A stretch of DNA of 64,000 nucleotides from positions 19,425-83,424 of the forward strand of contig JBBDWL010000084.1 of NCBI GenBank assembly GCA_040902895.1, given 5' to 3'. Position numbers and translations under genes: made by a program. Below are positions 12,234 to 35,072 of the stretch, piece by piece. Every line of letters begins with the position of its first letter. Position 1 is the first letter of the stretch. Origin of the DNA: Vicinamibacterales bacterium (GTDB lineage: Bacteria > Acidobacteriota > Vicinamibacteria > Vicinamibacterales > SCN-69-37). A model generated the notes under the pieces. The model saw nothing but the letters and a program-made list of their open reading frames with translations. It ran no database searches and was not told the origin of the DNA.

Positions 12234-13313
12234 TCAGGCACCGATTTCAAGGGTCGACTTGATGCCAGTGCCGCGCTGGGTGAACCACGTCTTGTAATCG
12301 GTCCACGGAATCCTGTTGGTCAGCAGCCTGTTCATCGCGCCCGGCCAGTTCTCTTCGATCGTCACAAAGTCTTCAACCCCTCTGGCGAAGTGGCGCGGGT
12401 TGGCATTGACACTGCCGAAGACGACCTGATTGCCGAGCACGAGCAGCTGGTTGATCCGCTCGATGGGTTCTTCACTCATCGTCCCGCCGCCGGTGACGCT
12501 GAGCAGGCAGAGCACGCCATTCGGCGCGAGAATCTCCATCGCGTCGAAGACCACACGCGCGCTGCCGGTGGCTTCGAGCACGAGATCGGGCGGACCGATC
12601 TGCGCGGGAATGTCGAGAATCGTCGACTTTTCCACAGACAGATATTCGGCGCCGAGCTGCCCGGCGATTTGCGCGCGCATGTCGGACGCCGGCTCGCGGC
12701 CGACAACGACCGTGCGCAGCCCGCGGGCGCGTAACGCAGCGGCGGCAAGCAGCCCGACGGGCCCTCCGCCGAGCACCACAGCCGTCTTCGGCTTCCACGT
12801 CGTCAGGCGCCGCTGCAGCAGGTAGGCGTGATCGATTCCCTTTTCGACCACCGACATGGGCTCGAGCAGCACGGCGAACGGCTCGACGACTGGCGGGAGC
12901 TTGTTGAGGAACTGCGGCAGCTCCACGTAGTACTCGGCCATGAACCCGTGGCGCCGCATGATGCCGCGCTCCTCGTACTTGCCGCTGATGCAGCAGTCGT
13001 TCTCGCCCGCATCGCAGTTCGGGCACTCGCCGCACGGCCGGCGCACCGTGGCGACGACGAGGTCGCCCGGCTTGAAGCCGGTGACATTCCTGCCGACATC
13101 GGCCACGGTGCCGAGATTCTCATGGCCGAGGATGAGGAACTCTTCCCCCACCGGCGGTTGGCCATACAGGCCGTGATTGATCTCCGCGTCTGTGCCGCAC
13201 AAACCCACGCGCAGCATCCTCACGGCGACGTGATCGTCCGACATCTGCGGATCGGGCATGTCCCGCATGTGGATGCTGTCTTTTTCACCTGGACGAACGA
13301 CGATGGCTTTCAT
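12234..13313 (-). CDS. Zinc-dependent glucose/aldose 1-dehydrogenase (archaeal-type MDR family)
   Basis: 359 aa. MKAIVVRPGEKD..., GLCGTDAEINHG, LGHENLG, the structural-Zn Cys cluster RRPCGECPNCDAGENDCC, nucleotide fold VVLGGGPVGLLAA, and SVNANPRHF. This order of motifs mirrors Sulfolobus/Thermoplasma-type glucose dehydrogenases. The gene starts 10 nt after the stop of the decahaem cytochrome gene. Confidence 0.7.
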   Translation of the reverse strand: MKAIVVRPGEKDSIHMRDMPDPQMSDDHVAVRMLRVGLCGTDAEINHGLYGQPPVGEEFLILGHENLGTVADVGRNVTGFKPGDLVVATVRRPCGECPNCDAGENDCCISGKYEERGIMRRHGFMAEYYVELPQFLNKLPPVVEPFAVLLEPMSVVEKGIDHAYLLQRRLTTWKPKTAVVLGGGPVGLLAAAALRARGLRTVVVGREPASDMRAQIAGQLGAEYLSVEKSTILDIPAQIGPPDLVLEATGSARVVFDAMEILAPNGVLCLLSVTGGGTMSEEPIERINQLLVLGNQVVFGSVNANPRHFARGVEDFVTIEENWPGAMNRLLTNRIPWTDYKTWFTQRGTGIKSTLEIGA

Positions 13314-13323
13314 GGCGCTCCGG

Positions 13324-14586
13324 TTATTGGAAATCGGTCAGCTTGAAGTGGGGTTTCACCGGACTGGCTTTCGTCCAGTCATGGTAGTCGTGGCAGGTGG
13401 CGCACTGAGATGATGCGCCCTTGGCCGGTGCATGGCATGTTGCGCACGTCGCGACTGCCGGCATCAGCACGTCTGACGTGTTGCGGCTCGAGGGCGCGGC
13501 CGTGTGGCACGAGGCGCACTGCACCATCAGATGCGGCGCGTGATCGAATCGCGCCTTGGGCATCCATCGGGCAGTCAGGTTAACCGGCGCGATCTGCGGC
13601 GCGCGATCCGGCGCCGCGGCACTGCTTACCGCATGACAGTCGGCGCAGCCCTTGGTCCAGAGGTAATGCTCGGCGCGGGCAGCGCGCTGCGACACCCACT
13701 CCGCGGCCGTGCGCGGCTGCGGCGCGGGATCGGCTGGAAAGTTCAGCGGCAGACGGCGCGCCGGCACGTCCCGCTCGGTGACCGCTGCCGGATTCGCCGC
13801 GATATACGCCTGCAGCGACTCCGTGACGAACGCACGGACGGCCGCCGGCTGCGCATGCGGCGCGGCTGTGTCCAGGCGCGGGTCGAACTCGAGCGTGTGG
13901 CAGCGCGCGCACTGCGCTTCGTAGGTGATCGAGGCCATCAGGCCAGTCACGCTGCGGCCGCGTGACGAGGCACGCGCGATCTCGGGCTTGTGGCACGTCG
14001 CACACTCCAGCGTTTCAGGGCCGTTGGGCCCTCGAAGGTTGTCGCTCGCATGCACCGCGTGATTGAACTTCAGGGCGCCGGGATCCGCCGCGCCGCTGCG
14101 CATCACGGCGAACTCCGGATGGTCCTGCGGGAAGCGGCCTGCCTTCACGAGCCGCGACCCGGCATGACATTCCACGCATTGCGTGTCGTTGGTCAGGGCA
14201 AGCGGGCCGCGACCCTCGTGTTCGCGGTGACAGTCGGCGCACGCCGGGAAATTCAACCCGGTTGAATTTCCCGTTGAATTGGCCGGCGGATGGCCTGGCG
14301 CATCGTGACACGTGAGGCAGGCGTTCTCGGTCACGTGCGCGCGGAACGACGTGTCGCGAAGATGGCACACCTCGCACTTCATTTCGACGAAGGCGTGCGC
14401 CGCCGACACGGGCCCGCTGCTGTACGGCGCGCGGCTTCCGGCGGCCGCCATGCCGCCGAGCCACAGCAGTCCGGCCAGCGGCGCGAGAATCGACAGACCC
14501 GTCCGCCACCGCCGCATGCCGCCCGCATGCTTGAAGTAATTGAGATCGATGCGCTGCGCCAGCTTCTTGGCGCTTCTCGTCCTCAT
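13324..14586 (-). CDS. Membrane-anchored decahaem c-type cytochrome
   Basis: ORF 13324..14673 trimmed to the ATG at 14586 (MRTRSAKKLAQ...), which sits 1 nt after the upstream stop. There is one N-terminal TM/signal anchor (LSILAPLAGLLWLGGMAAA). There are ten CXXCH motifs: CEVCH, CLTCH, CADCH, CVECH, CATCH, CARCH, CADCH, CASCH, CATCH, CATCH. Confidence 0.85.
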   Translation of the reverse strand: MRTRSAKKLAQRIDLNYFKHAGGMRRWRTGLSILAPLAGLLWLGGMAAAGSRAPYSSGPVSAAHAFVEMKCEVCHLRDTSFRAHVTENACLTCHDAPGHPPANSTGNSTGLNFPACADCHREHEGRGPLALTNDTQCVECHAGSRLVKAGRFPQDHPEFAVMRSGAADPGALKFNHAVHASDNLRGPNGPETLECATCHKPEIARASSRGRSVTGLMASITYEAQCARCHTLEFDPRLDTAAPHAQPAAVRAFVTESLQAYIAANPAAVTERDVPARRLPLNFPADPAPQPRTAAEWVSQRAARAEHYLWTKGCADCHAVSSAAAPDRAPQIAPVNLTARWMPKARFDHAPHLMVQCASCHTAAPSSRNTSDVLMPAVATCATCHAPAKGASSQCATCHDYHDWTKASPVKPHFKLTDFQ

Positions 14587-14587
14587 G

Positions 14588-15511
14588 TCAGTACCGCAAC
14601 GCCACCACGATGTGCACGCCGGCCAGCACCAGCAACGCGATCGAGACCGGCACGTGCACGAGCTGCCATGCATGCAGCAGCCGGTGCAGGCGCGCCTGCT
14701 CCATCAGCTGGCGCTCTTCCTCGCAGATGTTCTCCAGATCCGCGATCGACGGATGAAAGGTCGGCGGCACCAGTGCGCGCACCTTCTCGAACCGTAATGC
14801 CGACTGCGGACGATCGGCGAGCGGGTGCCGCGGCGTCGGCGCGTCGACGAACGGACGCATGTCTCGCGCATAGAACTCGCGTACCGGCGCTGATTCCTCA
14901 GCGTCAATCCGCGCGGTGCTGGCAAGCGCGGAGGCCGCCTCGTTCGCCATCACGCCCAGCCTCGCCTGTGCCGACGCGGCAGGAGCGCCCGGCGCCACGG
15001 TTTCGACCTCCAGCCGGCCGCACGCGTCCGCGACGATGGTGTCGGCCTCGGCGAGCAGCTGCGCTCGCACGTGGTCAATCTGATCGAAGATCGTTTCCAT
15101 CGGCACTTCGCGCAGCATGCGGCGCGGCAGGGTGTGCTGCAGGTACGCGCCCAGCAGTCCGCTGACGATGACGAACACGAAAAGCCACATCAGTACGAAC
15201 GTCAGCCCGGTGCCGAATGACAGCCCTGCGTGCAGCACGATCACGGGAAAGCTCAACATGCCGAGCCACAGGTGCCCCCGCATCCACGTTTGCGCGCGAC
15301 CGATGCGCCAGATCGGAAACTTCTTCCGCGCGCCGAGCAGTCCGGCATAGAGCATCATGCCGAACCCGGCGATGCCGAACGCCAGTCCCGGCACGGTGCC
15401 GCCGCCGGGTGATGCCACCGACGCCGTATAGATCGCATAGAGCACCACTGACGCGGCGAACAGCCCCGCGGTCGCGACGGCCCAGCGGCGATGCGTGTGG
15501 TCGATCAACAC
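14588..15511 (-). CDS. Five-TM membrane protein, predicted dihaem b-type cytochrome
   Basis: 307 aa with a GTG start at 15511, 5 nt after the upstream TAA. TM3 (HLWLGMLSFPVIVLH) and TM5 (HVPVSIALLVLAGVH) each carry two His exactly 14 residues apart (H-x13-H), as in bis-His dihaem cytochromes b. A loop of about 150 aa between TM4 and TM5 is predicted to be cytoplasmic by the positive-inside rule. No family name recognised. Confidence 0.55.
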   Translation of the reverse strand: MLIDHTHRRWAVATAGLFAASVVLYAIYTASVASPGGGTVPGLAFGIAGFGMMLYAGLLGARKKFPIWRIGRAQTWMRGHLWLGMLSFPVIVLHAGLSFGTGLTFVLMWLFVFVIVSGLLGAYLQHTLPRRMLREVPMETIFDQIDHVRAQLLAEADTIVADACGRLEVETVAPGAPAASAQARLGVMANEAASALASTARIDAEESAPVREFYARDMRPFVDAPTPRHPLADRPQSALRFEKVRALVPPTFHPSIADLENICEEERQLMEQARLHRLLHAWQLVHVPVSIALLVLAGVHIVVALRY

Positions 15512-15516
15512 GGACG

Positions 15517-17706
15517 TTACTTGCTCGTTTCTTCGGTTCCGGCCGCCGGCTCACGCCGGTCCATCGTGACGCCCTGCACCGATGCGAAGAACTGCAGCGG
15601 CTCCACGCGGTGCGCGGCGTCGTGCGGGCACGCATAGACGCAGCTCGGCTCCGCGTGCTCCATGCAGAGATCGCAGCCCGTCGCCTTGCGCGCGGTCGTG
15701 GCGATCTGCCGCCCGGGCTGCGCCGTATCGGGCGCGAGCACCTGGAACGGGTGCATGTTGAGATTGCCGTACGGACAGTTGTTGGCGCACAGGCCGCAGC
15801 CGATGCACCAGTCCTCGATGATGATCTCGAGAGAATTGCGGCGCCGGATGGATCCGACCGGGCATCCCACCATGCAGAGCGGATCGCGGCACTGGCGGCA
15901 CGATGTCGCGACCAGGTACTTGTCGAAGCGCAGCCCTTCGCGCACGAGCCGCGTGACACCATCGTGCGCGTCGGCGCAGGCCTTGACGCATTGATCGCAT
16001 CGCGTGCACTTCTCCAGGTCCAGCAGCAGCAGGCTCTGGGCCTCCATCAGCCCCTGCGAGAGAAAATCGTTGAGCGGCGTGGCTTCGAGCGAGCGGGCGC
16101 GCTGCACGTTCATCGCGGCACGTTCGGCCGCCACCTGCTCGAGGCTCGCGCGGATGTCGGGGAATCGCTCGAGCATCAGCGCAAAGTCCTCCCCCTGGAT
16201 GCGCACGACGTCCACATGATCGAGCGCGGTGCAGGTCGCGGTGCGCACGCCGCCGCCGAGGAGGCCCATTTCGCCGAAATACCCGCCACGCCCCGTGTAC
16301 GTCAGCACGAGCTCCCCGCCGGCGTGGCTCTCCGACACCTTCACGAACCCGAGCCGCACGAGATAGAACGCGTCCGCGGGATCGCCCTGCCGCACGATCA
16401 CATCGCCCGGTGAATACCGCAGCAGCTCCACGCGATCACGCAGGTAGGCGATGAAGTCGGCGGGCATTCCCGAGAAGACGGGCACGCTCTTCAAGTGGGT
16501 GTCGAGCGCGCGCTGGCGATACTGGCGATCGAGCTGCGCGCGGAAGGTCTTGTTCTTCTGGAGGATGTCGAGCACGTTTCGCAACATCTCGAGCGCGACC
16601 ACTTTCGTCTTCGCGCGCACGGTGGCCGACCGCGGATGAAAACTCATGCAGGTCATCTCGCCGAACAGCTCGCCGGCGCCAATCTGCGCGATCGGGTTGT
16701 CGTACGGCAGATCCACCGGCGCATCGATCGGAATCCAGCGCTTCCCCGTTTCCTCCGCGCGCGTGTGCTCCTGGCGGTCCGCGAGCCGGCTTCGGATCCG
16801 CGACAGCCAGCCTTCGTGCGTGTCCTCCTGCTTCACGTGCGCCATCGGCGTGCCGATATACACGTCGACGGTCCCCTCGAGAATGTAGAACGCCGTCGAA
16901 CCGAACTCCCCTTCCCGGCAGATCACATCACCGGGATTGAACTCGCGGCGCACGATGGCGTTGCGATTCAGCTCGAGGAAGGTGCCTGACACGCCCTTGA
17001 ACACTGGCAGCTGCAGCATCCACTCGGCCTCGAGCGCCTCGCCACCGCCCAGCTCGGTGGCAATGACGCGTTTGTTCGTCAGCGCCCCCGTCGGGCAGGA
17101 GACCATGCACTCGCCGCAGGAGACGCAGGTCGAGCTGCCCATCGGCACATTCAGATCGAACGCGATGCCCGCCGCGTAACCGCGGCCGGTCCGCCCGATG
17201 ACGTGGTTCTGCTTCACGTCGTCGCAGCCACGGACGCAGCGATCGCACAGGATGCACGATTCGTGATCGACCGCGATGCTCAGGGACGAATCGTCGCGGC
17301 CGCGCGGCGACAGCCGCCGCGCAAACCGTGGTTCGCCGCCAGGCGCCACCGCGCCCATCTGCGCCGACATCGTCTCGAGCTCGCAGTCGCCGCTCGCCTG
17401 CTGGCGTCCGCATGGCGACGGATGATCCGACATCAGCAATTCGACGAGCGTCCGGCGGGCCTGCTTCACCGGCTCGACATCGGTCTTGACGACCATCCCC
17501 TGGTCGCACTCACGGATGCACGCTGCCGCATACACGCGGGCGCCCACATCCACGACGCAGACGCGGCACACGCCGATCGGTGTTTGATTCTGCTGATGGC
17601 AGAGTGTGGGGATGGGCACGCCGCGCATTCGAGCGGCATCGAAAATCGTGGTGCCTTTCGGGACCGTGACTTCGTTGCCGTCGATGGTGAGGGTGACGGT
17701 GCTCAT
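15517..17706 (-). CDS. Fe-S oxidoreductase fusion: NuoG-type N-terminus (2Fe-2S + 4Fe-4S) / two cNMP-binding domains / C-terminal multi-[4Fe-4S] ferredoxin module
   Basis: ORF 15517..17982 trimmed to the ATG at 17706 (MSTVTLTIDGNEVTVPKGTTIFDAA...), which overlaps the upstream stop (ATGA), giving 729 aa. Motifs: TLCHQQ..CRVC..C (2Fe-2S); HPSPCGRQQASGDC; CILCDRCVRGC; CVSCGECMVSCP; two phosphate-binding cassettes FGEMTCMSFHPRSATVRA and FGEMGLLGGGVRTATCTA; then CTRCDQCVKAC, CRQCRDPLCMVGCP, CIGCGLCANNCP and CDLCMEHAEPSCVYACP. Confidence 0.8.
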   Translation of the reverse strand: MSTVTLTIDGNEVTVPKGTTIFDAARMRGVPIPTLCHQQNQTPIGVCRVCVVDVGARVYAAACIRECDQGMVVKTDVEPVKQARRTLVELLMSDHPSPCGRQQASGDCELETMSAQMGAVAPGGEPRFARRLSPRGRDDSSLSIAVDHESCILCDRCVRGCDDVKQNHVIGRTGRGYAAGIAFDLNVPMGSSTCVSCGECMVSCPTGALTNKRVIATELGGGEALEAEWMLQLPVFKGVSGTFLELNRNAIVRREFNPGDVICREGEFGSTAFYILEGTVDVYIGTPMAHVKQEDTHEGWLSRIRSRLADRQEHTRAEETGKRWIPIDAPVDLPYDNPIAQIGAGELFGEMTCMSFHPRSATVRAKTKVVALEMLRNVLDILQKNKTFRAQLDRQYRQRALDTHLKSVPVFSGMPADFIAYLRDRVELLRYSPGDVIVRQGDPADAFYLVRLGFVKVSESHAGGELVLTYTGRGGYFGEMGLLGGGVRTATCTALDHVDVVRIQGEDFALMLERFPDIRASLEQVAAERAAMNVQRARSLEATPLNDFLSQGLMEAQSLLLLDLEKCTRCDQCVKACADAHDGVTRLVREGLRFDKYLVATSCRQCRDPLCMVGCPVGSIRRRNSLEIIIEDWCIGCGLCANNCPYGNLNMHPFQVLAPDTAQPGRQIATTARKATGCDLCMEHAEPSCVYACPHDAAHRVEPLQFFASVQGVTMDRREPAAGTEETSK

Positions 17707-19400
17707 GACGGACGGTTCCCAGCAGGTGCCGCGAAACAGACGCCGGCGGCGCAGGCGCGGCTGCGGACGTGCGCTTCGACCTCGTCGCCGAAATGCTTCA
17801 TGACCGACGCGATGGGCACGGGCACGACCTGGCCCAGTCCACAAATCGAGGTCAGGCGCAGCGCGTGGCCGAGCTCCTCCATCAGGACAAGATCGTCGGC
17901 GCCGCGAAGTCCCGAAGTCCACGACGTGAGAATGTCGACCAGCTTCTGCGAACCCGTGCGGCACGGCACGCACTTGCCGCATGACTCGTTGCGGAAGAAG
18001 CGCACGGCGTTGACCGCCATGTCGAGCATGCAGGCGCGCTCGTCGCAGACGACAATGGCGCCAGAGCCGACGGTCGCGCCCGCCTGGGTCATGGCTGTCC
18101 AGTCGAGCGGCAGGTCCAGCATCGACTCCGGCAGGTAGCCGCCCGCAGGCCCGGACGGCGCAAACGCTTTGATCGTGTGGCCCGGCAGGGCGCCTCCGGC
18201 GTAGTCGTTGACGATGGCGCGGTAGGGCGTGCCCATCGGCACTTCGTACACGCCGGGGCGCTGCACGTCACCGCTCACGCCAACGAACTTCACGCCGACC
18301 GAACCATCGCGGCCCTGCGCCTTCAGCCAGTCGGTGCCGCGCGCGAGAATCACGGGGACAAAGAAGAACGTCTCGACGTTGTTGATGACCGTGGGTTTCT
18401 GCCAGAGCCCCTGCTGTCCCGGGAACGGCGGCTTGTTGCGCGGCTCCGCGCGCTTGCCTTCGATCGCTTCGAGCAGCGCGCTCTCCTCTCCGCAGATGTA
18501 CAGCCCGGGACTGACGAAGACTTCGAGATCGAACGCGAGATCCGTCCCGAGAATGCGATCGCCGAGCAGCCCCTCGCGGTAGCAGCGCGCGATCTCGCCG
18601 GCCATCACGTGTTCCTGATGCGTGTACTCGTGCCGGATATAGAAGATCCCCTGCCGGGCGCCCGTGACGAGCCCGCCGAGAATCATGCCTTCGATGATCA
18701 GGTGCGGCGCGTGCGTCATCAGGAACCGGTCCTTGATGGTGCCGGGCTCGCTTTCATCCGCGTTGCACACGATGAACTTGTCGGGGCCCGGCTGGGCGCG
18801 CACGATCTCCCACTTCATTCCGGTTGGAAAGCCGGCGCCGCCGAGACCGCGCAGCCCGCTTTCCTTGAGTTTCGCGATGAGCCCCGTCCAGTCGCGCGAT
18901 TGCGCGTACTGGCGCAGCACGCCGTACTGCTCGCCCGCTGCGTACGGATCCGACCGCACGACCGCATGCGGAGGATGCGGCGGCTCCGGCAGCGGCTGCC
19001 CCCCAAGCGCCGTCTGGATCAGCGAAGCCGCAGACGCGTCATCGACGTTCTCGTAGATGACGTCATTGATCGCGATGGCCGGCGCCAGATCGCATCGCCC
19101 AAGACAGGAGACGTGCTGAATGTTGACGTCCTGACCCTGGAAGCGGCGCACGAGGCTGTCGCGGAGGCGGCCGGCGCCGTATCGATGGCAGGACATGTCG
19201 CCGCAGACACGAACTTCGGCGCGTGATGGCGGCGTGAGAAAGAAATGCGGGTAGAAACTGGCCACCGACTGCAGCCGGTACAGCGGCATGTCCAGCTGTT
19301 CTGCGAGCGCGCGCAGGGCGCCCTCAGGCAGGTAGCCATGAACCCGCTGGATGGCGCGAAGCTCATCGAACACGGGTGAGTGCGTGGCGGTCCGATTCAC
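17703..19400 (-). CDS. NuoE-NuoF fusion (NADH-binding FMN/Fe-S flavoprotein module of complex-I/HoxF type)
   Basis: 565 aa. The N-terminal NuoE-like thioredoxin-fold 2Fe-2S domain has VASFYPHF, CGDMSCH and SCLGRCDLAPA. The NuoF part has GLRGLGGAGFPTGMKWE, CNADESEPGT and the N3 cluster ligands ESCGKCVPCRTG. Confidence 0.85.
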   Translation of the reverse strand: MNRTATHSPVFDELRAIQRVHGYLPEGALRALAEQLDMPLYRLQSVASFYPHFFLTPPSRAEVRVCGDMSCHRYGAGRLRDSLVRRFQGQDVNIQHVSCLGRCDLAPAIAINDVIYENVDDASAASLIQTALGGQPLPEPPHPPHAVVRSDPYAAGEQYGVLRQYAQSRDWTGLIAKLKESGLRGLGGAGFPTGMKWEIVRAQPGPDKFIVCNADESEPGTIKDRFLMTHAPHLIIEGMILGGLVTGARQGIFYIRHEYTHQEHVMAGEIARCYREGLLGDRILGTDLAFDLEVFVSPGLYICGEESALLEAIEGKRAEPRNKPPFPGQQGLWQKPTVINNVETFFFVPVILARGTDWLKAQGRDGSVGVKFVGVSGDVQRPGVYEVPMGTPYRAIVNDYAGGALPGHTIKAFAPSGPAGGYLPESMLDLPLDWTAMTQAGATVGSGAIVVCDERACMLDMAVNAVRFFRNESCGKCVPCRTGSQKLVDILTSWTSGLRGADDLVLMEELGHALRLTSICGLGQVVPVPIASVMKHFGDEVEAHVRSRACAAGVCFAAPAGNRPS

Positions 19401-19455
19401 GCGGGGAGTGTTATAGCACGTGGAGCCGGACGAGAGGTGGTGTATAAGAACGTCA

Positions 19456-20826
19456 ATGGTGATTGGTCACGCGCCCGGAGCGCTGATGCTTGCCGCCGTG
19501 GCCGTCTTCAGCGCGTCGTTCACCCACTCGCTTCGCGCGCGCGAAGCTCGACCACCAGCCGCCATCGCGCGAGTCCCCCCCTCTGAGCGCGTACTCGCGC
19601 AGACCGCCGCAGCCTTTACCGGTCCGGGCTCCTGTGCCGCCGCCGCCTGCCATGGCGCCGTTCGCCCCGTTGCCGGCAGCCGGATTCTGCAGACCGAATA
19701 CACGACGTGGATCGCGCAGGACCGTCACGCCGCCGCAACGGAGGTGCTGTCGAATGCCGCGTCGGTGCGCATGGCGCGCATTCTCGGCGTCGGCGACCCA
19801 AAAACCGCCCCCAGATGTCTTGCGTGCCACAGCCTGGACGCGCCTTCGGCGAGCCAGGCGCGTACGTTCGCGAACGAAGGCGTGAGCTGCGAAGCGTGCC
19901 ACGGGCCCGCAAGCCGGTGGCTCGGCCCGCATACCACCAAGGGATGGACGCACGCACAGTCGGTGCAGCTCGGCATGTACGACACGAAGGATGTGGTGAA
20001 GCGCACCGAAAAGTGCCTCACCTGCCACCTGGGCACTCCTGAAAAATTTGTCGACCACGAGATGATCGCCGCCGGGCATCCGGATCTCGTATTCGACCTG
20101 GAAGCCTACAGCGCCGCAATGCCTCGGCACTGGCACGCGGCGACGCCGGCCGATCCCTTTGCTCCGGTGCGGTCGTTCAGCATCGGACAGCTCGTGCACC
20201 TGCGAAATGCGCTCGATCGTCTCGCCCACCGCGCAAAAACGTCGTGGCCTGAATACGGCGAGCTCGATTGTTTCGCCTGCCACCACAGCCTCACACCGGC
20301 AAGCGACAGCTGGCGCCAGGCTGCCGGCTACGAGAACCGACGTCCCGGCAATCCGCCGCTCAACGTCTCGCGCTGGACGACCGCCCAGCATGTGCTGGCG
20401 GCATTCGACGGACAAGCGGCCGATGAGATGCGCCCGGTGATGATTGCCCTGCAGCGCGAGGCGGGCCGGCTTCGCGTGGATGCCGACGCCATCGCCGGTC
20501 AGGTTGCGCGGGCGCGAGGCATCCTCGATCGCGCCATTGGACGCGCCGTCGCCGCGCGGCCTGACGCCGCTGTGGCGCGAAGGTTGCTGCGCGCGATTGC
20601 ATCCGACGCGCCTGCCATCGCGATCCAGGGTGAGCGTGCGGCCGAACAGGCAGCCATGGCCATGGAAACGCTCTACACCGCCACGGCCGGCACCGGCAGC
20701 AACACCGCCGTGCGCACGGCTTTCGACGAGTTGTTCCGGCAGTTCCAAAGTCCCAGCAGCTACGACCCGCGGCGTTTCGTCGCGCAGGTACGGAAACTCG
20801 AGGCCGCTCTTGGCGCGCCGCGCTGA
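19456..20826 (+). CDS. Exported pentahaem c-type cytochrome (cytochrome c554-like family)
   Basis: ORF 19420..20826. I prefer the ATG at 19456 (MVIGHAPGALMLAAVAVFSASF, signal-like), but 19420 is not excluded. Haem motifs: CAAAACH (CX4CH), CLACH, CEACH, CLTCH, CFACH. It is divergent from the NuoEF operon with an intergenic region of about 55 nt. Confidence 0.7.
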   Translation: MVIGHAPGALMLAAVAVFSASFTHSLRAREARPPAAIARVPPSERVLAQTAAAFTGPGSCAAAACHGAVRPVAGSRILQTEYTTWIAQDRHAAATEVLSNAASVRMARILGVGDPKTAPRCLACHSLDAPSASQARTFANEGVSCEACHGPASRWLGPHTTKGWTHAQSVQLGMYDTKDVVKRTEKCLTCHLGTPEKFVDHEMIAAGHPDLVFDLEAYSAAMPRHWHAATPADPFAPVRSFSIGQLVHLRNALDRLAHRAKTSWPEYGELDCFACHHSLTPASDSWRQAAGYENRRPGNPPLNVSRWTTAQHVLAAFDGQAADEMRPVMIALQREAGRLRVDADAIAGQVARARGILDRAIGRAVAARPDAAVARRLLRAIASDAPAIAIQGERAAEQAAMAMETLYTATAGTGSNTAVRTAFDELFRQFQSPSSYDPRRFVAQVRKLEAALGAPR

Positions 20827-22617: not shown

Positions 22618-23424
22618 TCAAATCCGGAACGTCTGCCCCTCGCCCGCCGTGTCGGTTGCGGCGAAGACCTGCTGCGCCGCCCGTTTGATCTCCACCAGAT
22701 CCTCATCACTGCGGCCTGGCTTGTGGTGGAAGAGCCAGAGCGCGCCAATGCTGTTCGTGCCGGCAAACTCCGCGCACGTGCGCCAGTCGCTGTGCCCCCA
22801 GCCGGCATGCGCGCCGATCTCGTCAGGGGTGAAGTGGGAGTCGAGAATGATTGCGGCGGCGCCGTGCGCGAAACGCGCGAGCGCGGCGTCATGCGACGCG
22901 CTGCCGAACTCATGATCGGTTGCATAGACCAGATCACGGTGCTCACCGCGCACCCGGTAGCCGAGACATCCCCCGGGATGATTGAGCGGCATCGCCGTGA
23001 TCTCGAATCCCTCGATCGAAATATCCCCTGGCCCGACGATCGTGATCGAGGGACGATTGGGCAGACGATCGACCGGCACCGGGAAAAAGGGCGATCGAAA
23101 GATCGTCTCGACCCAGTCGGGCTCGCTGGACTCGAACTTCGGCGCAAAAATTCTCGGACTCCACCCGGGCTGATACAACTGGGCGAGAAACGGAAGACCC
23201 TGCACGTGATCCCAGTGATAGTGCGTCAGCAAGATCGGCAGCTCACGCGGCTCGCCTTTCAATGCGACGCCGACGCCAACGATGCCGGATCCGGCATCGA
23301 GGATCAGGGTGCGCCCGGAGCGCTCGTTCGTGAGCTCGATACACGGCGTATTGCAGCCGTGGCCGATGGCGCTCGGCGTCGCCCACGGCACCGACCCTCG
23401 CACGCCCCAGAAGCGAACCAGCAT
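22618..23424 (-). CDS. Metallo-beta-lactamase-fold hydrolase
   Basis: ORF 22618..23625 trimmed to the ATG at 23424 ([17 protein letters not shown]...), which overlaps the upstream TGA by 1 nt, giving 268 aa. HxHxDH metal motif in LLTHYHWDHVQGLPF. Later His/Asp ligand contexts: LNHPGG, ATDHE, LFHH. Confidence 0.75.
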   Translation of the reverse strand: MLVRFWGVRGSVPWATPSAIGHGCNTPCIELTNERSGRTLILDAGSGIVGVGVALKGEPRELPILLTHYHWDHVQGLPFLAQLYQPGWSPRIFAPKFESSEPDWVETIFRSPFFPVPVDRLPNRPSITIVGPGDISIEGFEITAMPLNHPGGCLGYRVRGEHRDLVYATDHEFGSASHDAALARFAHGAAAIILDSHFTPDEIGAHAGWGHSDWRTCAEFAGTNSIGALWLFHHKPGRSDEDLVEIKRAAQQVFAATDTAGEGQTFRI

Positions 23425-24534
23425 CAGCGCCCTCCCGCGAGCTGGCGATTGGATTCGCGCACGCGCGCGGCAAGCTGCCGCAGCAGCTCCTGCGTGCGCG
23501 CGGGATCCTCGACGAGCAGGCGGCCAAATGATGCCTTCGTGATGCGGCGAAGCTGCACGTCGGTCATCGCGGTCACCGTCGCGGAGCGAGGCTCGTCGAG
23601 CAACAGGCTCATCTCGCCCACCCACGAGCCCGGGCCAAGTTCCGCCAGCACCGCGGCCTCGCGTGTGACGCGCAGCCTGCCGCGTTCGACCAGATAGGCT
23701 TCAGTGCCGGTTTCTCCTTCTCTCATCACCACCTCGCCCGCGCGTGCAAGCCGGTAGCCGCACGTCTCGAACGGACACGGATACGCGGCCGTGTGATACA
23801 GCTTGGCGCACACAGTCGTGCGGCCCCACTGCCGGCGGTACGCCGCGGCCGCGAGCAGGGCGCCCGCGACAGGGCCGGCGATGTAAATCCATTGATCGCG
23901 CAGGGCCGGCACGAGCAGCGCCGGAGCGAGACTCCGCGCGGGATTGACACTGGTTCCCGAAATCGGCGCTTCGATCGTCACCAGCGCCACGACCAGGGTG
24001 CCGGCGATGATGCCGGTGCGCGCCGCGAGCGCCGGCTTGTTCACACACACGAAAATCAGAAACACCAGCGCGAAGGTCGCGGCGGTTTCAGCGGCCAGGG
24101 CGCCCATCCACGTCCATCCCTCCCCGGGCGCTGTCAGGGCAAGCTGAACGCTGCGGGCGATATCGCCCCAGACGAGCGCCGCAAGCGCCACGCCCGCGAC
24201 CGCGCCGGTCAGCTGCGCCACGATGTACGGCAGCACGTCGCGGCCTGGAAATTTCCCGAGACGCCAGAATGCAAGCGTGACCGCCGGATTGATGTGACCT
24301 CCGCTGCGCTGGCCGAGCGGCGAATAAACCACGAATGTCGCGCCTCCTGCGAAGAGCAGGCCCGTGATAAATCGGCGCAGCGCCGGCGGTTCGATGACCG
24401 GGACACGTGACCCCGCGCCCCACATCGCGGTCACCGCCGAGACGCCCAGGAACAGCATCACCGCGGTGCCGGCGAACTCGCAGGCATAGATGAGCGTGCG
24501 TCCGCGCATGGTTGTCGCATAATACCCGTCCGCC

Positions 24535-24536
<2 letters not shown>
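23424..24536 (-). CDS. MIP-family aquaporin fused to a C-terminal cNMP-binding domain
   Basis: ORF 23424..24599 with the start at ATG 24536 (MADGYY...); ATG 24509 is an alternative. Six TM helices with both NPA boxes ([18 protein letters not shown]). A Cys/His-containing linker ([19 protein letters not shown]) follows, then the cNMP domain [24 protein letters not shown]...[18 protein letters not shown]. Confidence 0.85.
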
Positions 24537-27194
<2,658 letters not shown>

Positions 27195-27207
<13 letters not shown>

Positions 27208-32200: not shown

Positions 32201-33049
32201 CTGGATCGGGCGGTGACATTCAATCCCGGGGGGGTGCTGACAGGTGCGCGGCGGATCACAATCGCCGGCACCTACGCGTACATCCTCACGGACACGGCAC
32301 TCGTCGTCGTAAGCCTCGAGAATCCGCTCGCGCCGAAGGTGACGGCGCACATCGGGGCGCCGGATCTGATTGATCCGCGCGGCATCGCCGTCCAGTTCCG
32401 TTACGGGTTCGTGGTGGATCGCGACGGGTTGAAAGTGCTGGATGTGTCATCGCTCGCGCAGCCCCAGGTCGTACGCGGCGCGCGTGTGCCGTTCAAGGAC
32501 GCGCGCAACGTCTATCTCGCGCGAACGTACGCGTACGTGGCGGCCGGACATGACGGTCTCGGCATCGTGAACATCGGCAAGCCGGAGCAGCCGGTGCTCG
32601 ATCAGCAGTTCAACGCCGGCGGCGCGCTCGATGACACGAACGACGTGAAGGTGGGCATGACCAATGCGAGCCTGTTCGCCTACGTCGGCGACGGCCACAA
32701 CGGCCTGCGGGTCGTGCAGCTGTTCTCGCCAGAGACGAACGAGAACCATTACGGATTCAGCCCGCGTCCCACGCCGGTGCTCATCGCCTCGTACCCGATG
32801 CATGGCGGCGCGCTGATGGTGTCGGAAGGGATCGACCGCGATCGCGCCGTCGACGAGAGCGGTAATCAAATCGCCGTCTTCGGCCGTCGCGGCGCGAGGC
32901 CGTTCAACAAGGCCGAAGCCGAGAAGCTCTTCATGCGCTCGGGCCGGGTGTACACCGTGACGAATGATCCGCCGCGTCCCGCAGTAGACGAGACGCAGGG
33001 CCTGTTCGCCACGCTGCGCTCGTATTGGCGCCGATACGGATGGCAGTGA
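29255..33049 (+). CDS. Decahaem c-type cytochrome fused to a C-terminal LVIVD-repeat beta-propeller
   Basis: 1264 aa with N-terminal signal/anchor [17 protein letters not shown]. Ten CXXCH motifs lie in the first ~760 aa: CISCH, CADCH, CGTCH, CTGCH, CMTCH, CIDCH, CVDCH, CYSCH, CLGCH, CTDCH. The C-terminal ~480 aa carries about six LVIVD-like repeats: [42 protein letters not shown]. Confidence 0.8.
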
Positions 33050-33050
33050 G

Positions 33051-35072
33051 GTGCTGAGAAAAGTCGCGGCCGGTCTGCTGCTCGGTCTGTGCGCCGCGGC
33101 GTTCGTGCTGCTGCCTGGATGGATCGGCCTGCTCGATCTTCCTGAGCTCAAGACGTACGACTGGCGCGTCCGTCGCGTCGCCCGAGCCGATTCCGTGCAC
33201 CGCGACATCGTCCTTGTCGAAATCAACGACGAGAGCATCCGCGCCGTCGCGAAGGTCGGTGGGCGCTGGCCGTGGCCGCGTGTGGTGCTGGCCGATGCCA
33301 TCGACTTCCTCAAGCGCGGCTCTCCAAAAGCGATTGCGGTCGACTTTCACATCGCAGAGCCCGACATGAGCGAGGGCGTTCCGTACGGCGGCGACACGTG
33401 GTCCGGCGCGGAGTCAGACGCGGCGCTCGTCGAATCGGTCAGGAACACGCCCCGCATCATCATGCTTGCAGACGCCGTCCATCTCGGCGTCGTCGGCGGC
33501 TCTGCCGATCGCGAGGGTGCGTGGACGAGCCCGCCCTACCGGCTCGGCCCTGCGATCGAAGAGCGGCCGCAGCTGGTTCCGCCGATACCCGGCCTCGCGC
33601 AGGCCGCCGCGCTCGGCCACAACCTGCTTCACCCTGACAGGGACGGCCCCGCGCGCAGGATGGCGCCGTTCATCCGAATCGGCGATCGCTACGTGCCGTC
33701 GCTCGGCGTCGCGGCCGCGCTCGTTGCTGCGGATGTGAAACCGGAAGAAGTCGTCCTCGAGGGACGCACGATCCGGGTGCGCGATCGCGTGATCCCGCTC
33801 GTCGCCGAGCGCGTGCCCAACTGGAACGACGCCTCCGAGTCGCACGATCAGCTGACAATGCTGATCAACTACAGGGCGCCTGCGATCGTGAACGGCGCGC
33901 GGCCGTACACGTCGTACGAGATCCGCGATCTACTGGTGTCGCAGGAGCAGCTCAACGCCGGCATGGCGCCGGTGCTCGATCCTGCAGTGTTCAAAGACAA
34001 GATCGTGTTCGTCGGTCTCACGGCATCGGGGCTGCTCGATGTCTTCACCACGCCGTTCGGTGAAGGCGTCATGCCGGGCATTCAGCTGCATGCGAGCATG
34101 GCCGACGGCATCCTGTCGGATCGTTTCATCAGGCCGGCGCCCGACGCCGCGCGAATCGCGGGAACGCTGGCCGCGGGCCTCGTCGTCGCGCTCATGGCAA
34201 CGACACTCCCTTATGCCGCGGCTGCGGCCGGCGCGGTGGTCGTCACGGGCGGGTGGCTCTGGCTGTGCTTCCTCGTGTTCCGCGACGGCATCTGGCTCAA
34301 CATGTCGCAGCCGATCATCGCCGGCGCCGTGGCGCTCTTTGCGGGCACCGCGTACCAGTATTTCGTCGAAGGCGCCGAGAAGCGCGCGGTCAAGAAACTG
34401 TTCGGACGCTACGTCTCAAAGGATGTCTACGAGCAGCTGGTTGCCAATCCCGAGCTCGCGCAGCTCGGAGGAAAACGCCGCGAGATGTCGGTGCTGTTCT
34501 CGGACATCCGCGGCTTCACGACCGTGACCGAGCAAGGCGATCCCGAAGAGCTCGTGTTGATGCTCAATGAGTATTTCTCCCGGATGGTCGCCATCGTGTT
34601 CCGGCAGCAGGGCACGGTCGACAAGTTCGTCGGCGATATGGTCATGGCCCTGTTCGGCGCGCCGCTCGATGACCCGGCGCACGCCGAGCATGCGGTGGCC
34701 ACGGCGGTGGACATGGTGCGCGAGCTCGGCGAGCTGAACCGTAAATGGGCCGCCGAGGGCCGCACCCAGCTGGATATCGGCATCGGGGTGAATTCGGGAG
34801 GAATGATCGCGGGGAATATCGGGTCGTCCTCCATCATGAGCTACACGGTTATCGGCGACAACGTGAACCTCGGCGCGCGCCTGGAATCGCTGAACAAAGA
34901 CTATCGAACCCGGATTATCATTAGCGACGCGACGCGGTCGCTCCTCCAAGGCCAGTACGAAATCCGTCCGTTGGGCGATGTCGTCGTCAAGGGGAAGACG
35001 CGTCCCGTTGCCATCTTTGAAGTCGTGGTCCCATCGCCGCTGCAGGCGGCACACGAGGAAGCACAGTCATGA
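33051..35072 (+). CDS. CHASE2-sensor class III adenylate/guanylate cyclase
   Basis: 673 aa with a GTG start 2 nt after the upstream stop. TM1 is followed by a periplasmic CHASE2-like region (GGRWPWPRVVLADAIDFL), three TM helices, and the cyclase domain: REMSVLFSDIRGFTT, VDKFVGDMVMALFGAP, GVNSGGMIAGNIGS, YTVIGDNVNLGARLES. The Lys in DKFVGD suggests adenylate specificity (inference). Confidence 0.85.
   Translation: MLRKVAAGLLLGLCAAAFVLLPGWIGLLDLPELKTYDWRVRRVARADSVHRDIVLVEINDESIRAVAKVGGRWPWPRVVLADAIDFLKRGSPKAIAVDFHIAEPDMSEGVPYGGDTWSGAESDAALVESVRNTPRIIMLADAVHLGVVGGSADREGAWTSPPYRLGPAIEERPQLVPPIPGLAQAAALGHNLLHPDRDGPARRMAPFIRIGDRYVPSLGVAAALVAADVKPEEVVLEGRTIRVRDRVIPLVAERVPNWNDASESHDQLTMLINYRAPAIVNGARPYTSYEIRDLLVSQEQLNAGMAPVLDPAVFKDKIVFVGLTASGLLDVFTTPFGEGVMPGIQLHASMADGILSDRFIRPAPDAARIAGTLAAGLVVALMATTLPYAAAAAGAVVVTGGWLWLCFLVFRDGIWLNMSQPIIAGAVALFAGTAYQYFVEGAEKRAVKKLFGRYVSKDVYEQLVANPELAQLGGKRREMSVLFSDIRGFTTVTEQGDPEELVLMLNEYFSRMVAIVFRQQGTVDKFVGDMVMALFGAPLDDPAHAEHAVATAVDMVRELGELNRKWAAEGRTQLDIGIGVNSGGMIAGNIGSSSIMSYTVIGDNVNLGARLESLNKDYRTRIIISDATRSLLQGQYEIRPLGDVVVKGKTRPVAIFEVVVPSPLQAAHEEAQS

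Follow-up and report, generated by a model that had tools for sequence, protein, structure and literature searches.

Tandem cNMP-binding domains between two iron-sulfur modules in a protein from a PCC4/Ptd-like locus of Vicinamibacterales: a candidate ligand-gated electron relay

Introduction

The closest described systems are the PCC4 gene clusters (He et al. 2017, PMC5566968) and the ptdABCDEFG cluster (bioRxiv 10.1101/2023.11.21.568154). The latter encodes PtdE, which has no assigned function and combines cNMP binding with a 4Fe-4S ferredoxin at its C-terminus, and the preprint counts only two clusters. PtdE is the Fe-S gene of PCC4 subgroup II (bioRxiv 10.1101/2023.11.21.568154; PMC5566968). 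Cyclic nucleotides are nowhere mentioned for PCC4 by He et al. 2017, who give two H-x13-H pairs and an SGxxG motif as the signature of the di-haem FRD-like membrane proteins of PCC3 and PCC4 (PMC5566968). An earlier note on the DNA studied here allowed that the architecture in question might already have been functionally described; the gene set has indeed been named, as PCC4 in 2017 and as ptd in 2023, but its function has not been described. The metal-cycling cluster in Planctomycetota (PMC10732223) is of a different, NrfD type and is not relevant here. PCC4/Ptd-type conduits have a proposed role in the redox cycling of iron, manganese or humic substances. The known control of respiration and extracellular electron transfer by cyclic nucleotides acts via transcription factors such as CRP, and no electron-transfer chain with an integral cNMP sensor was found in the literature searched.

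Other systems contain similar parts. A NuoE/NuoF-type FMN flavoprotein is combined with an Fe-S module (2Fe-2S, His site and two 4Fe-4S clusters) in the HoxEFU diaphorase, the FdsGBA N-module, HydABC and the Nqo1-2-3 N-module. The His site of FdsA has the ligands H117/C121/C124/C130, and its cluster A4 lies off the path from FMN to the active site; in complex I, the His-ligated cluster N5 sits on the main path. The NuoF proteins of electron-bifurcating HydABC/Bfu-type complexes are marked by extra ferredoxin-type cluster domains. In NOX5 and DUOX, members of the ferric-reductase-domain family, cytoplasmic NAD(P)H is oxidised and the electrons cross the membrane via two bis-His b haems on helices 3 and 5, with a small-ligand sensor domain fused on the cytoplasmic electron-input side.

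Results and Discussion

Gene and domain organization

The window is a 64,000-nucleotide stretch of contig JBBDWL010000084.1 from a Vicinamibacterales bacterium (positions 19,425 to 83,424, assembly GCA_040902895.1). The earlier note placed a gene for a 729-aa protein at 15517-17706, which is correct, and the gene is located on the minus strand (Table 1); the plus strand gives only a stop-ridden translation. The start codon at 17706 overlaps the stop codon of the upstream NuoE-NuoF gene (ATGA), to which the gene is translationally coupled. A longer ORF of 821 aa from 17982 was rejected as a spurious extension into nuoF, since its first 92 aa run out of frame over the nuoF C-terminus, and all orthologs begin with an MSTVTLTIDG-like sequence, which also speaks against it. 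A second-copy search identified a single copy in the genome.

Table 1. Positions of the relay gene, its domains and its neighbours in the window
Feature	Protein positions (aa)	Window positions	Strand	Characteristics
Whole gene, 729 aa (P0002)		15517..17706	-	HoxU-like Fe-S module, 2 cNMP-binding domains, 4-cluster polyferredoxin
2Fe-2S domain	1-80	17467..17706	-	C36, C47, C50, C63; Pfam Fer2_4 E 1.5e-17
Degenerate His(Cys)3 site	84-118	17353..17457	-	H95-x3-C99-x2-Q102-x5-C108; HydA1 and FdsA alignments
2x[4Fe-4S] ferredoxin-like domain	144-212	17071..17277	-	C151/154/157/161, C194/197/200/204; Fer4_7 and Fer4_Nqo3
cNMP-binding domain 1	233-385	16552..17010	-	Cassette F348-G-E350...P358-R359-S-A-T362
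Insertion in beta4-beta5 loop of domain 1	285-338	16693..16854	-	Ends in conserved IPIDAPVDLPYDNP
cNMP-binding domain 2	405-520	16147..16494	-	Cassette F477-G-E479...R488-T-A-T-C492
Long C-helix of domain 2 and conserved connector into first cluster motif	516-560	16027..16161	-	PL.DFL.QGLM.AQSLLVLDLEKC
HydN/DmsB-type polyferredoxin	561-702	15601..16026	-	Four 4Fe-4S motifs (567-577, 603-615, 634-644, 678-693)
NuoE-NuoF fusion, 565 aa, predicted NADH/FMN input		17703..19400	-	Pfam 2Fe-2S_thioredx, Complex1_51K, SLBB, NADH_4Fe-4S
Five-helix inner-membrane protein, predicted di-haem b		14588..15511	-	W-x3-H80-x13-H94, SGLLG, W-x3-H286-x13-H300
Decahaem cytochrome c		13324..14586	-	10 CXXCH
Pentahaem-like gene		19420-20826		4 CXXCH and 1 CX4CH
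Barrel and decahaem-propeller pair		27195-33049		
CHASE2 and class III nucleotide cyclase, candidate signal source		33051..35072	+	Lys in DKFVGD, Thr in YTVIGDNVN
MBL-fold hydrolase, candidate cNMP phosphodiesterase		22618..23625	-	Lactamase_B_2; homologs in 5 loci

Profile searches with Pfam and NCBIfam upheld the domain order given in the earlier note, an Fe-S module followed by two cNMP-binding domains and a polyferredoxin, as well as its assignment of the four C-terminal Cys clusters to the DMSO-reductase beta-subunit/polyferredoxin type. The C-terminal part matches HydN in NCBIfam (E 1.4e-14) and several Pfam Fer4 families at 560-700, and 15 of its 16 cysteines are invariant or nearly so in 76 orthologs, while C681 is replaced by Ser in nine. 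More than 6,000 near-full-length database proteins match, the top matches listed sharing the architecture, and the species-genome collection contains 272 confirmed relatives, which rules out an assembly chimera. The domain architecture is thus confirmed as real. The family comprises 1,427 representative clusters at E<1e-30, with members in Acidobacteriota, Methylomirabilota, Planctomycetota and Proteobacteria.

The N-terminal iron-sulfur module

The N-terminal module has the HoxU/NuoG/FdsA-type fold with a 2Fe-2S site (4 Cys) and a 2x[4Fe-4S] domain (8 Cys), recognized in Pfam as Fer2_4 at 3-76 and Fer4_7 at 150-208. It superposes on the N-termini of HydA, FdsA and HydABCSL with an rmsd of 2.5-3.6 A over 216-232 columns, and its best sequence matches are HoxU (E 1e-49) and HydA1 (E 1e-43). 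The scores against the HoxU profile NF005745 (168.8 bits, E 1e-49, equivalog cut-off 333) and the NuoG profile TIGR01973 (111.3 bits, equivalog cut-off 470) indicate a homologous domain, not an ortholog. All eight cysteines of the two 4Fe-4S motifs (C151-C204) are invariant in the 76 orthologs. As ligands to the 2Fe-2S cluster, C36, C47, C50 and C63/67 had been suggested; C36, C47, C50 and C63 are invariant, whereas C67 is variable (Ala in 38, Cys in 28 and Val in 9 of the 76 orthologs) and is no ligand.

The module differs from those of HoxEFU, FdsGBA, HydABC and Nqo1-2-3 in having a Gln as third ligand of its His site. The 729-aa protein lacks a complete H-x3-C-x2-C-x5-C site, and HMMER alignments to HydA1 (7q4v) and FdsA (6tg9) agree with the earlier note that a Cys has been exchanged for Gln, with Q102 at the position of the third ligand, Cys124 in FdsA. 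The Pfam family NADH-G_4Fe-4S_3 scored 25.3 bits at 84-118, under its cut-off of 27. None of the 76 orthologs contains a Cys at position 102; the site reads HCQC in 57, HCHC in 12 and HCEC in 4, and is lost in 3. Among 58 diverse full-length representatives, the His-site cysteines are kept in just 14. Judging from the alignments, the H-C-Q-C site is most likely the counterpart of an off-pathway A4-type cluster, a remnant that would form no link of the wire. The idea that the exchange of Cys for Gln breaks or gates the main wire is unlikely, because the site is homologous to the off-path A4 of FdsA and is missing in many relatives that keep everything else. The exchange would matter if the protein used an N5 exit like that of complex I, which is a point against the mechanism favoured below.

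The cNMP-binding domains

The Pfam family cNMP_binding (PF00027) matches with 123.5 bits (cut-off 27.5; E 3.6e-36) in three stretches that represent two domains, the first of which is split. The insertion in domain 1, previously put at about 50 aa, covers about 55 aa, is ungapped in the 76 orthologs with its conserved IPIDAPVDLPYDNP motif, and is also found in the stand-alone forms P0146, P0198 and P0205. The middle region gave fold matches to the tandem CNB domains of PKA-R and PKG, and sequence matches to Bcy1 and PKG. Like PKA regulatory subunits and PKG (CNB-A/CNB-B), the protein contains two consecutive CNB domains with a long joining helix and canonical phosphate-binding cassettes. It differs in that the output is an Fe-S domain and not a kinase inhibitor site, in the beta4-beta5 insertion, and in a Cys that replaces the hinge Leu of the cassette in domain 1. 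The relative pose of the two domains is not comparable to that in PKA-R and PKG (rmsd 11-20 A).

The two cassettes, FGEM..PRSATV and FGEM..VRTATC, are canonical, as the earlier note had proposed, and conserved in relatives. The residues F348-G-E...R359-S-A-T and F477-G-E...R488-T-A-T are invariant or at least 90% conserved in 65 orthologs, and G349, E350, R359, G478, E479 and R488 persist in 47-58 of the 58 diverse full-length representatives; among the 35 stand-alone ones, the count is 31-35. At the His site, conservation is far lower than at these phosphate-binding residues.

Many bacterial domains with the CNB fold do not bind cNMP, and such folds can bind other ligands or none, which counts against a role for cyclic nucleotides in this protein. 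The two domains might instead be structural spacers, dimerisation scaffolds or sensors of another ligand, like the CRP/FNR relatives of the haem, 2-oxoglutarate or Fe-S type. The insertion that interrupts domain 1 would fit this explanation, as would two unusual but conserved cysteines in or beside the cassettes, C353, which corresponds to the hinge contact Leu203 of PKA RIalpha, and C492. However, loss of the Arg or the Glu is typical of CNB domains that do not bind, whereas very diverse relatives retain the ribose and phosphate contacts (Gly-Glu...Arg-Ser/Thr-Ala-Thr) almost without change in both domains. The recurrence of a cyclase and an MBL/PDE-like gene in the neighbourhood, and the presence in the same window of an aquaporin and an MscS channel with cNMP domains, also speak for a cyclic nucleotide as the ligand, and we find this explanation quite improbable.

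In the AF2 model of the 729-aa protein (pLDDT 72.7, pTM 0.62; poor in the polyferredoxin), the C-helix of domain 2 and the connector form helices at 516-541 and 545-554. The connector residues L549, G552, L553, A556, L559, L560 and L564 are invariant in the ortholog alignment. A fold search with the whole model matched the domains separately and returned nothing that fixes their mutual arrangement.

Gene neighbourhood

The cNMP-binding and polyferredoxin part of the protein corresponds, by comparison with the published description, to the uncharacterised PtdE of the ptd/PCC4 clusters, with which it shares the combination of cNMP-binding domain(s) and a C-terminal 4Fe-4S ferredoxin in one polypeptide. 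The 729-aa protein differs from PtdE in the HoxU/FdsA-type 2Fe-2S and 2x4Fe-4S module fused to its N-terminus. The locus also has in common with ptd and PCC4 subgroup II a five-helix FRD-like membrane protein (two H-x13-H) with an adjoining decahaem cytochrome. A pentahaem-like gene and a predicted outer-membrane barrel are located nearby, as candidate counterparts of the pentahaem and the porin of ptd. The putative donor is a NuoE-NuoF flavoprotein, as opposed to the FAD/NAD(P) oxidoreductase PtdC in ptd. No tetrahaem gene (PtdD in ptd) or PtdC-type gene was seen at the locus, which has NuoEF and the HoxU-like module in that place.

The NuoE-NuoF fusion scored 433.9 bits against TIGR01959 (E 4e-130), under the cut-off of 558.65. 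An electron-bifurcating complex of the HydABC type was rejected since Pfam detected no extra ferredoxin-type domains on the NuoE-NuoF protein beyond those in Table 1 and no catalytic partner is present. Unlike HoxEFU, FdsGBA, HydABC and Nqo1-2-3, the locus has no hydrogenase, molybdopterin or quinone module, and the N-module runs on into the CNB domains and the polyferredoxin. The motifs of the membrane protein (W76..H80..H94, S117-GLLG, W282..H286..H300) contain histidines that are conserved in 66-70 of 70 orthologs. Start and stop codons in the operon overlap or nearly touch, and the true start of the decahaem gene is likely the ATG at 14586, one base past the stop of the membrane-protein gene. 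The window also contains a grouping of further proteins with cNMP domains, namely an aquaporin and an MscS channel.

The CHASE2 cyclase, a candidate adenylate-type IIIb enzyme by its sequence motifs, is located 15 kb from the 729-aa gene in a genome with just 4 cyclases in 4.6 Mb. Cyclase homologs were found at most 8 kb from the relay gene in 18 of 80 loci, a proportion that overstates independence because proximity is inherited within clades, and additionally in locus L081, where the cluster also contains an MBL-fold gene with a PDEase_II match. Together, the near-invariant pocket residues and the recurrent cyclase and MBL hydrolase nearby support regulation by cNMP, and control of electron flow by cNMP is plausible on these grounds.

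Distribution and modularity

The gene order NuoEF, 729-aa gene, membrane protein and multihaem cytochrome is found in most of 80 loci, and is kept across Acidobacteriota, Methylomirabilota, Planctomycetota and one MAG of Rhodanobacteraceae (Pseudomonadota). The earlier note's terms for the two cluster chains, NADH-proximal beside NuoEF-like genes and membrane-proximal, fit this order: NuoEF is directly upstream in 78 of the 80 loci, and the di-haem membrane protein and decahaem cytochrome follow in most of them. Some Planctomycetota have the pair of NuoEF and Fe-S genes with no membrane protein or cytochrome nearby.

The segment with two cNMP-binding domains and the polyferredoxin also exists by itself and joined to other N-termini. 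In one clade (L081) it follows a HoxU-like gene as a gene of its own; it occurs without NuoEF in another locus (L084), and is part of a single 1483-aa NuoE-NuoF-HoxU-CNB-polyferredoxin fusion in a third case (P0184). Stand-alone homologs (P0146, P0205) are 43-57% identical over aa 233-710. The segment is thus an evolutionary unit, in which the cNMP tandem is an N-terminal appendage of the polyferredoxin. The earlier note had placed the cNMP-binding domains physically between the two cluster chains. They are between them in sequence, but sequence order is not spatial order, and the tandem contains no redox cofactor, so that the two Fe-S modules must dock directly.

That the unit of CNB domains and polyferredoxin always goes with the membrane protein, while the donors vary, would suit another explanation, in which the domains bind cNMP yet control assembly or recruitment, either the docking of the soluble NuoEF and Fe-S unit to the membrane cytochrome b or oligomerisation. 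The conserved beta4-beta5 insertion resembles an interaction surface, and the tandem CNB domains of PKA-R, to which the fold is matched, work by binding and releasing a partner. On the other hand, most lineages carry the HoxU-like module as a covalent fusion, with which an intramolecular junction agrees at least as well, and the near-invariant connector from the C-helix of domain 2 to the first cluster motif points to coupling into the polyferredoxin. We regard control of assembly as unlikely.

A proposed ligand-gated relay

From the domains, ligand sets, conservation, synteny and modularity observed, we infer an electron path with nucleotide binding, a direction of flow and gating. The protein would be the cytoplasmic Fe-S connector of a quinone-independent transmembrane conduit of the PCC4/Ptd type that is gated by cAMP via its CNB tandem, a reading to which we assign a probability of about 0.5. 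NADH would be oxidised at the FMN of the NuoE-NuoF fusion, and the electrons would pass from N3 to the 2Fe-2S cluster and the two 4Fe-4S clusters of the HoxU-like N-module, and then over a docking junction to the polyferredoxin with its four C-terminal clusters. The next stations would be the two b haems of the five-helix membrane protein, the periplasmic decahaem cytochrome, and finally the outer-membrane barrel and decahaem-propeller pair. The flow may run outward, for disposal of NADH, or inward, from Fe(II).

The CNB pair, which has no cofactor, would serve as a tandem sensor similar to those of PKA-R and PKG, attached N-terminally to the polyferredoxin. On binding, cAMP, of which the neighbouring CHASE2 cyclase is the probable source, would move the C-helix of domain 2 and the conserved connector, and thereby make or break either the junction between N-module and polyferredoxin or the contact with the membrane protein. 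The outcome would be an on/off valve on a route that drains NADH and dissipates the membrane potential. In outline, such a system resembles the ligand-regulated NAD(P)H oxidases of the NOX5/DUOX type, and the membrane protein contains the FRD motif. However, its family search gave only a weak Pfam match (DUF4405) and no membership in that family, the input is an FMN and Fe-S chain on separate or fused subunits rather than an FAD/NADPH domain, the sensor is a CNB domain rather than an EF-hand, and the acceptor is a decahaem cytochrome rather than O2.

Allosteric coupling is thermodynamically reciprocal, and the redox state of the Fe-S clusters could in principle set the affinity for cNMP. The protein would then be no valve but a redox-dependent buffer or sensor of nucleotides that reports the status of NADH or the electron acceptor into the cNMP network. 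The window is rich in other cNMP effectors able to read the level of free nucleotide, and the H-C-(Q/H/E)-C site with its non-Cys ligand could hold a labile sensing cluster. Yet a stoichiometric subunit of a respiratory system would be a poor buffer, the 729-aa protein has no output domain, and many relatives retain the CNB pocket but have lost the His site, all of which makes this reverse coupling highly improbable.

Returning to the gated relay, its boldest form, in which the second messenger cAMP acts directly and post-translationally on the Fe-S wire to open or close quinone-independent export of NADH electrons across both membranes, is put forward tentatively and with more doubt than conviction. 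If true, this would make the protein the first ligand-gated Fe-S relay, and abundant soil bacteria would have a new means of controlling respiration or extracellular electron transfer, through a family situated where PCC4/Ptd-type conduits have their only entry point on the cytoplasmic side. A valve at this point would provide a fast switch for the NADH-draining route, a handle to turn electron export on or off in bioelectrochemical strains, and a testable function for a cluster that already has two published names. Experiments are feasible in Granulicella aggregans M8UP14, a cultured host in which the ortholog (L066) is 63% identical.

Gene model, domains and spread of the relay protein

The plus-strand translation of 15517-17706 is riddled with stops, and the 729-aa Fe-S and cNMP-binding protein (P0002, product of the relay gene) is read from the reverse strand. 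Its start ATG at 17706 shares ATGA with the TGA of the gene upstream. An 821-aa ORF from 17982 was ruled out as the true gene: the extra part is an out-of-frame run across the end of nuoF, and all orthologs start with an N-terminus like MSTVTLTIDG. Every element named in the earlier note was recovered by Pfam, NCBIfam and structure-based HMMER alignments, including the cNMP-binding and Fer4 families in the Pfam profile search (Table). Over the 76 orthologs used for conservation counts, the Fe-S cysteines are invariant or nearly so (four of the 2Fe-2S site, eight of the N-terminal 2x[4Fe-4S] domain and 16 of the C-terminal polyferredoxin), and the conserved fourth 2Fe-2S ligand is C63, not C67, which had also been considered.

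Table. Features of the window and of P0002
Feature	Position	Strand	Remarks
Glucose/aldose-dehydrogenase-like MDR gene (Glu_dehyd_C)	12234-13313	-	Next after decahaem gene
Pentahaem-type cytochrome	19420-20826	+	4 CXXCH + 1 CX4CH, Cytochrome_C554 match; divergently transcribed
HbpS-like (haem-degrading/GlcG-type) protein	20444-22615	+	Next after pentahaem-type gene
MBL-fold hydrolase	22618-23625	-	Within 20 kb of relay gene
Aquaporin with C-terminal cNMP-binding domain	23424-24599	-	Within 20 kb of relay gene
GH63/MGH1-like glycoside hydrolase	24535-27207	+	Adjoins aquaporin gene
CHASE2 + class III cyclase	33051-35072	+	Directly after barrel/decahaem-propeller genes
MscS-type channel with C-terminal cNMP-binding domain	36252-37712	+	Within 20 kb of relay gene
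C492 of P0002	~16231-16233	-	Directly after RTAT in domain 2
C353 of P0002	~16648-16650	-	Cassette helix of domain 1
Fer2_4	P0002 aa 3-76		Pfam
NADH-G_4Fe-4S_3	P0002 aa 84-118		Pfam, 25.3 bits, below cut-off 27
Fer4_7 + Fer4_Nqo3	P0002 aa 144-210		Pfam
cNMP_binding	P0002, three stretches		Pfam, E 3.6e-36; two domains, first split
Several Fer4 families	P0002 aa 560-700		Pfam
HoxU	P0002 aa 1-218		NCBIfam, E 1e-49, 169 bits vs cut-off 333
HydN	P0002 aa 561-702		NCBIfam

A survey of the domain order showed the architecture to be real and conserved. More than 6,000 proteins matched P0002 in a word-indexed search, and the top matches listed share its architecture and bear only the names “cyclic nucleotide-binding domain-containing protein” or [quoted passage not shown]. 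Relatives are encoded on 272 stretches (contigs, one genome per species), the best 80 of which come from Vicinamibacterales, to which the window belongs (96% identity), Terriglobales, among them the cultured Granulicella aggregans M8UP14, Methylomirabilota/Rokubacteria, Planctomycetota (Gemmatales) and a single Rhodanobacteraceae MAG. The family is patchy within the phylum: of 301 species genomes drawn evenly, only 7 contain it. For a diverse set, 150 representatives of 50%-identity clusters were aligned onto the P0002 family.

A proposed electron conduit encoded around the relay gene

Directly upstream lies a 565-aa NuoE-NuoF fusion (domains 2Fe-2S_thioredx, Complex1_51K, SLBB and NADH_4Fe-4S), which matches TIGR01959 at E 4e-130 with 433.9 bits, below the cut-off of 558.65. 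A 307-aa membrane protein, which begins five bases 3' of the relay gene, carries the motifs W-x3-H80-x13-H94, S117-GLLG and W-x3-H286-x13-H300, the histidines of which are conserved in 66-70 of 70 orthologs. The same signature was given for inner-membrane proteins of the PCC3/PCC4 clusters and read as a ferric-reductase-like di-haem site (He et al. 2017, PMC5566968). One base past the stop of the membrane-protein gene begins a decahaem cytochrome c with ten CXXCH motifs. The order NuoEF, relay gene, membrane protein, multihaem cytochrome is kept in most of 80 loci; in Gemmataceae the same four genes run membrane protein, cytochrome, NuoEF, Fe-S gene, and three Planctomycetota loci contain the NuoEF and Fe-S pair only. 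An outer-membrane barrel and decahaem-propeller pair is located 10 kb from the relay gene in the window, and immediately beside the relay genes in many Terriglobales and Methylomirabilota loci.

P0002 would serve a transmembrane conduit of this kind as its cytoplasmic Fe-S connector (probability about 0.85). Electrons would pass from NADH to FMN/N3 in NuoEF, to the 2Fe-2S and two 4Fe-4S clusters of the HoxU/FdsA-type N-module, across a junction to the four 4Fe-4S clusters of the polyferredoxin, and on through an inner and an outer haem b to the decahaem protein and the outer-membrane module.

Homologs of the pentahaem-type and HbpS-like genes occur in most Acidobacteriota loci, the latter often at another position or strand. 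The MDR gene, which may encode a dedicated source of NAD(P)H, keeps its position in the Vicinamibacterales-type loci L001-L003, L006-L008, L011, L012 and L054, and in L017, but was not found there in the Terriglobales loci compared. The GH63/MGH1-like family also adjoins the relay cluster of an unrelated split-gene locus, L081 (15067-17754).

The degenerate His site

When P0002 is aligned by HMMER with solved structures, H95, C99, Q102 and C108 coincide with the four ligands of the H-x3-C-x2-C-x5-C motif in HydA1 and FdsA, Q102 at the Cys124 position of FdsA. The Cys-to-Gln replacement reported earlier in this His(Cys)3 site is thus confirmed, and none of the 76 orthologs has a cysteine at position 102: 57 have H-C-Q-C, 12 H-C-H-C and four H-C-E-C, while three have lost the site wholly. 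Within this clade H-C-(Q/H/E)-C is retained almost completely, which suggests that the site still holds a metal or cluster with an unusual fourth ligand; its loss in other relatives shows that core function does not need it.

In the formate dehydrogenase (FDH) of Rhodobacter capsulatus, electrons run directly from FMN to the active site through a chain of B6, A5 (2Fe-2S), A3, A2 and A1, and cluster A4 (His117/Cys121/Cys124/Cys130) lies off this chain, at the dimer interface. In P0002, as in FdsA, HydA and HoxU, the 2x[4Fe-4S] domain has its two clusters; Nqo3 lacks the second. Since both are kept, we infer that the exit of electrons from the N-module would be the distal 4Fe-4S cluster, with the H-C-Q-C site as the leftover of a side-branch cluster. 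If P0002 had a complex-I-type exit through N5, the side-branch reading would be wrong.

Modular variants

Many representatives align only from residue ~212-235 through 710 of P0002. They are stand-alone proteins of ~500 aa, proteins with unrelated N-termini, and a single 1483-aa NuoE-NuoF-HoxU-CNB-polyferredoxin fusion from a metagenome (P0184; CNB, cNMP-binding domain), in which the His site is wholly degenerate (ADHLRPESVHYPRPHNEL). As a Rosetta-stone fusion of NuoE, NuoF, HoxU-like, CNB and polyferredoxin parts, P0184 is taken as confirming that all of these would work together. In the metagenome locus L081 (5789-10593), the 395-aa HoxU-like module, whose His site reads H-C-E-C, is encoded separately from, and overlaps, the CNB and polyferredoxin gene (P0146, 530 aa); both lie behind NuoEF, with NAD kinase and cyclase genes upstream, and the surroundings also contain genes for a multihaem cytochrome, a 331-aa membrane protein, a pentahaem protein, a GH63-like glycosidase and a PDEase_II/MBL protein. 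Locus L084 (7928-11783) combines a CNB and polyferredoxin gene with a Ferric_reduct-like membrane protein, multihaem cytochromes and a decahaem-LVIVD protein, but contains no NuoEF. As to whether the domain unit always sits beside NuoEF-like genes, it does so in most of the 80 loci but not in L084. From L081 and L084 it follows that the constant unit is the sensor tandem, polyferredoxin, di-haem membrane protein and multihaem cytochrome, and that the donor module varies.

The descriptions of PtdE/PtdF/PtdG from the ptdABCDEFG cluster of marine Alphaproteobacteria (bioRxiv 10.1101/2023.11.21.568154) and of PCC4 subgroup II (He et al. 2017, PMC5566968) fit this constant unit. Both clusters were defined from genomics alone, and cyclic nucleotides go unmentioned in He et al. 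2017. The gene-cluster type is thus already in the literature under two names. In the literature searched, we found no description of the form with NuoEF and a fused HoxU and no precedent for the idea of a ligand-gated Fe-S junction.

The probable cNMP sensor and a candidate signal toolkit

Both phosphate-binding cassettes, F348 G349 E350 ... P358 R359 S360 A361 T362 in domain 1 and F477 G478 E479 ... R488 T489 A490 T491 in domain 2, are invariant or nearly so in the 76 orthologs. The pocket Gly/Glu/Arg are retained in 47-58 of 58 full-length representatives and in 31-35 of the 35 sequences with only the cNMP and polyferredoxin part, whereas both His-site cysteines are retained in only 14 of the 58; the sensor pocket is therefore under far stronger constraint than the His site. 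The tandem matches PKG and PKA regulatory subunits in sequence searches, and a single alignment with yeast Bcy1 spans the first cassette through the second CNB domain. Tandem CNB structures are matched by Foldseek at E ~1e-16, but with a large rmsd. The predicted CNB domains probably bind a cyclic nucleotide; a rival reading is that they bind a non-cNMP ligand or act as a scaffold.

Class III cyclase genes number four in the 4.6 Mb of the host genome; one is the CHASE2 cyclase gene of the window, and another lies just upstream of the window (G000:C84:18413-18931). In the catalytic domain of the CHASE2 cyclase, the substrate-specifying pair is Lys (DKFVGD) and Thr (YTVIGDNVN), which we take to be of adenylate-cyclase type, as in class IIIb enzymes. 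In 18 of the 80 loci (for the most part Terriglobales, with L033 and L049), and likewise in L081, a cyclase homolog is encoded at most 8 kb from the relay gene. An MBL-fold hydrolase gene is present again in five of the 80 loci, and the one in L081 also has a PDEase_II match. These associations are phylogenetically non-independent, yet they are seen in several distinct gene arrangements. Together, the MscS and aquaporin proteins with CNB domains and the MBL hydrolase would form a dense local cNMP toolkit.

Proposed coupling of the sensor to electron transfer

Electrons cannot run through the CNB domains, which contain no cofactor; the polyferredoxin and the N-module must then dock within ~14 Å of each other, so the tandem would lie beside the junction and not in it. 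The earlier placement of the cNMP domains between the two cluster chains is correct for domain order, which need not be the order in space. Domain 1 has an insertion of ~55 aa (aa 285-338), gapless in all 76 orthologs, which corresponds to the β4-β5 loop of canonical CNB domains and closes with a conserved IPIDAPVDLPYDNP. In the AF2 model, a long helix (516-541) follows domain 2, then a short helix (545-554), and these run into the near-invariant QGLM.AQSLLVLDLEKCTRCD, which holds the first cluster ligand. The C-helix is the element that moves upon ligand binding in CNB proteins, and its modelled attachment to the polyferredoxin, direct and conserved, is of the kind expected for an allosteric link.

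Outward electron flow would be exergonic, conserve no energy and dissipate membrane potential, as NOX-type enzymes do, and this would give a reason for a fast valve. The valve would be the CNB tandem, whose pose against the polyferredoxin would depend on cAMP. We put the chance that nucleotide binding alters electron transfer in P0002 at evens or slightly below. The rivals are that cNMP controls assembly, or that the coupling is reversed, from redox state to nucleotide.

Two further conserved cysteines, C353 and C492, are not Fe-S ligands. C353 stands where PKA RIα has its hinge-contacting Leu203. It is retained in 74/76 orthologs, 51/58 full-length representatives and 30/35 stand-alone ones; the corresponding numbers for C492 are 76/76, 36/58 and 28/35. 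Either could possibly serve as a redox-sensitive thiol in the sensor.
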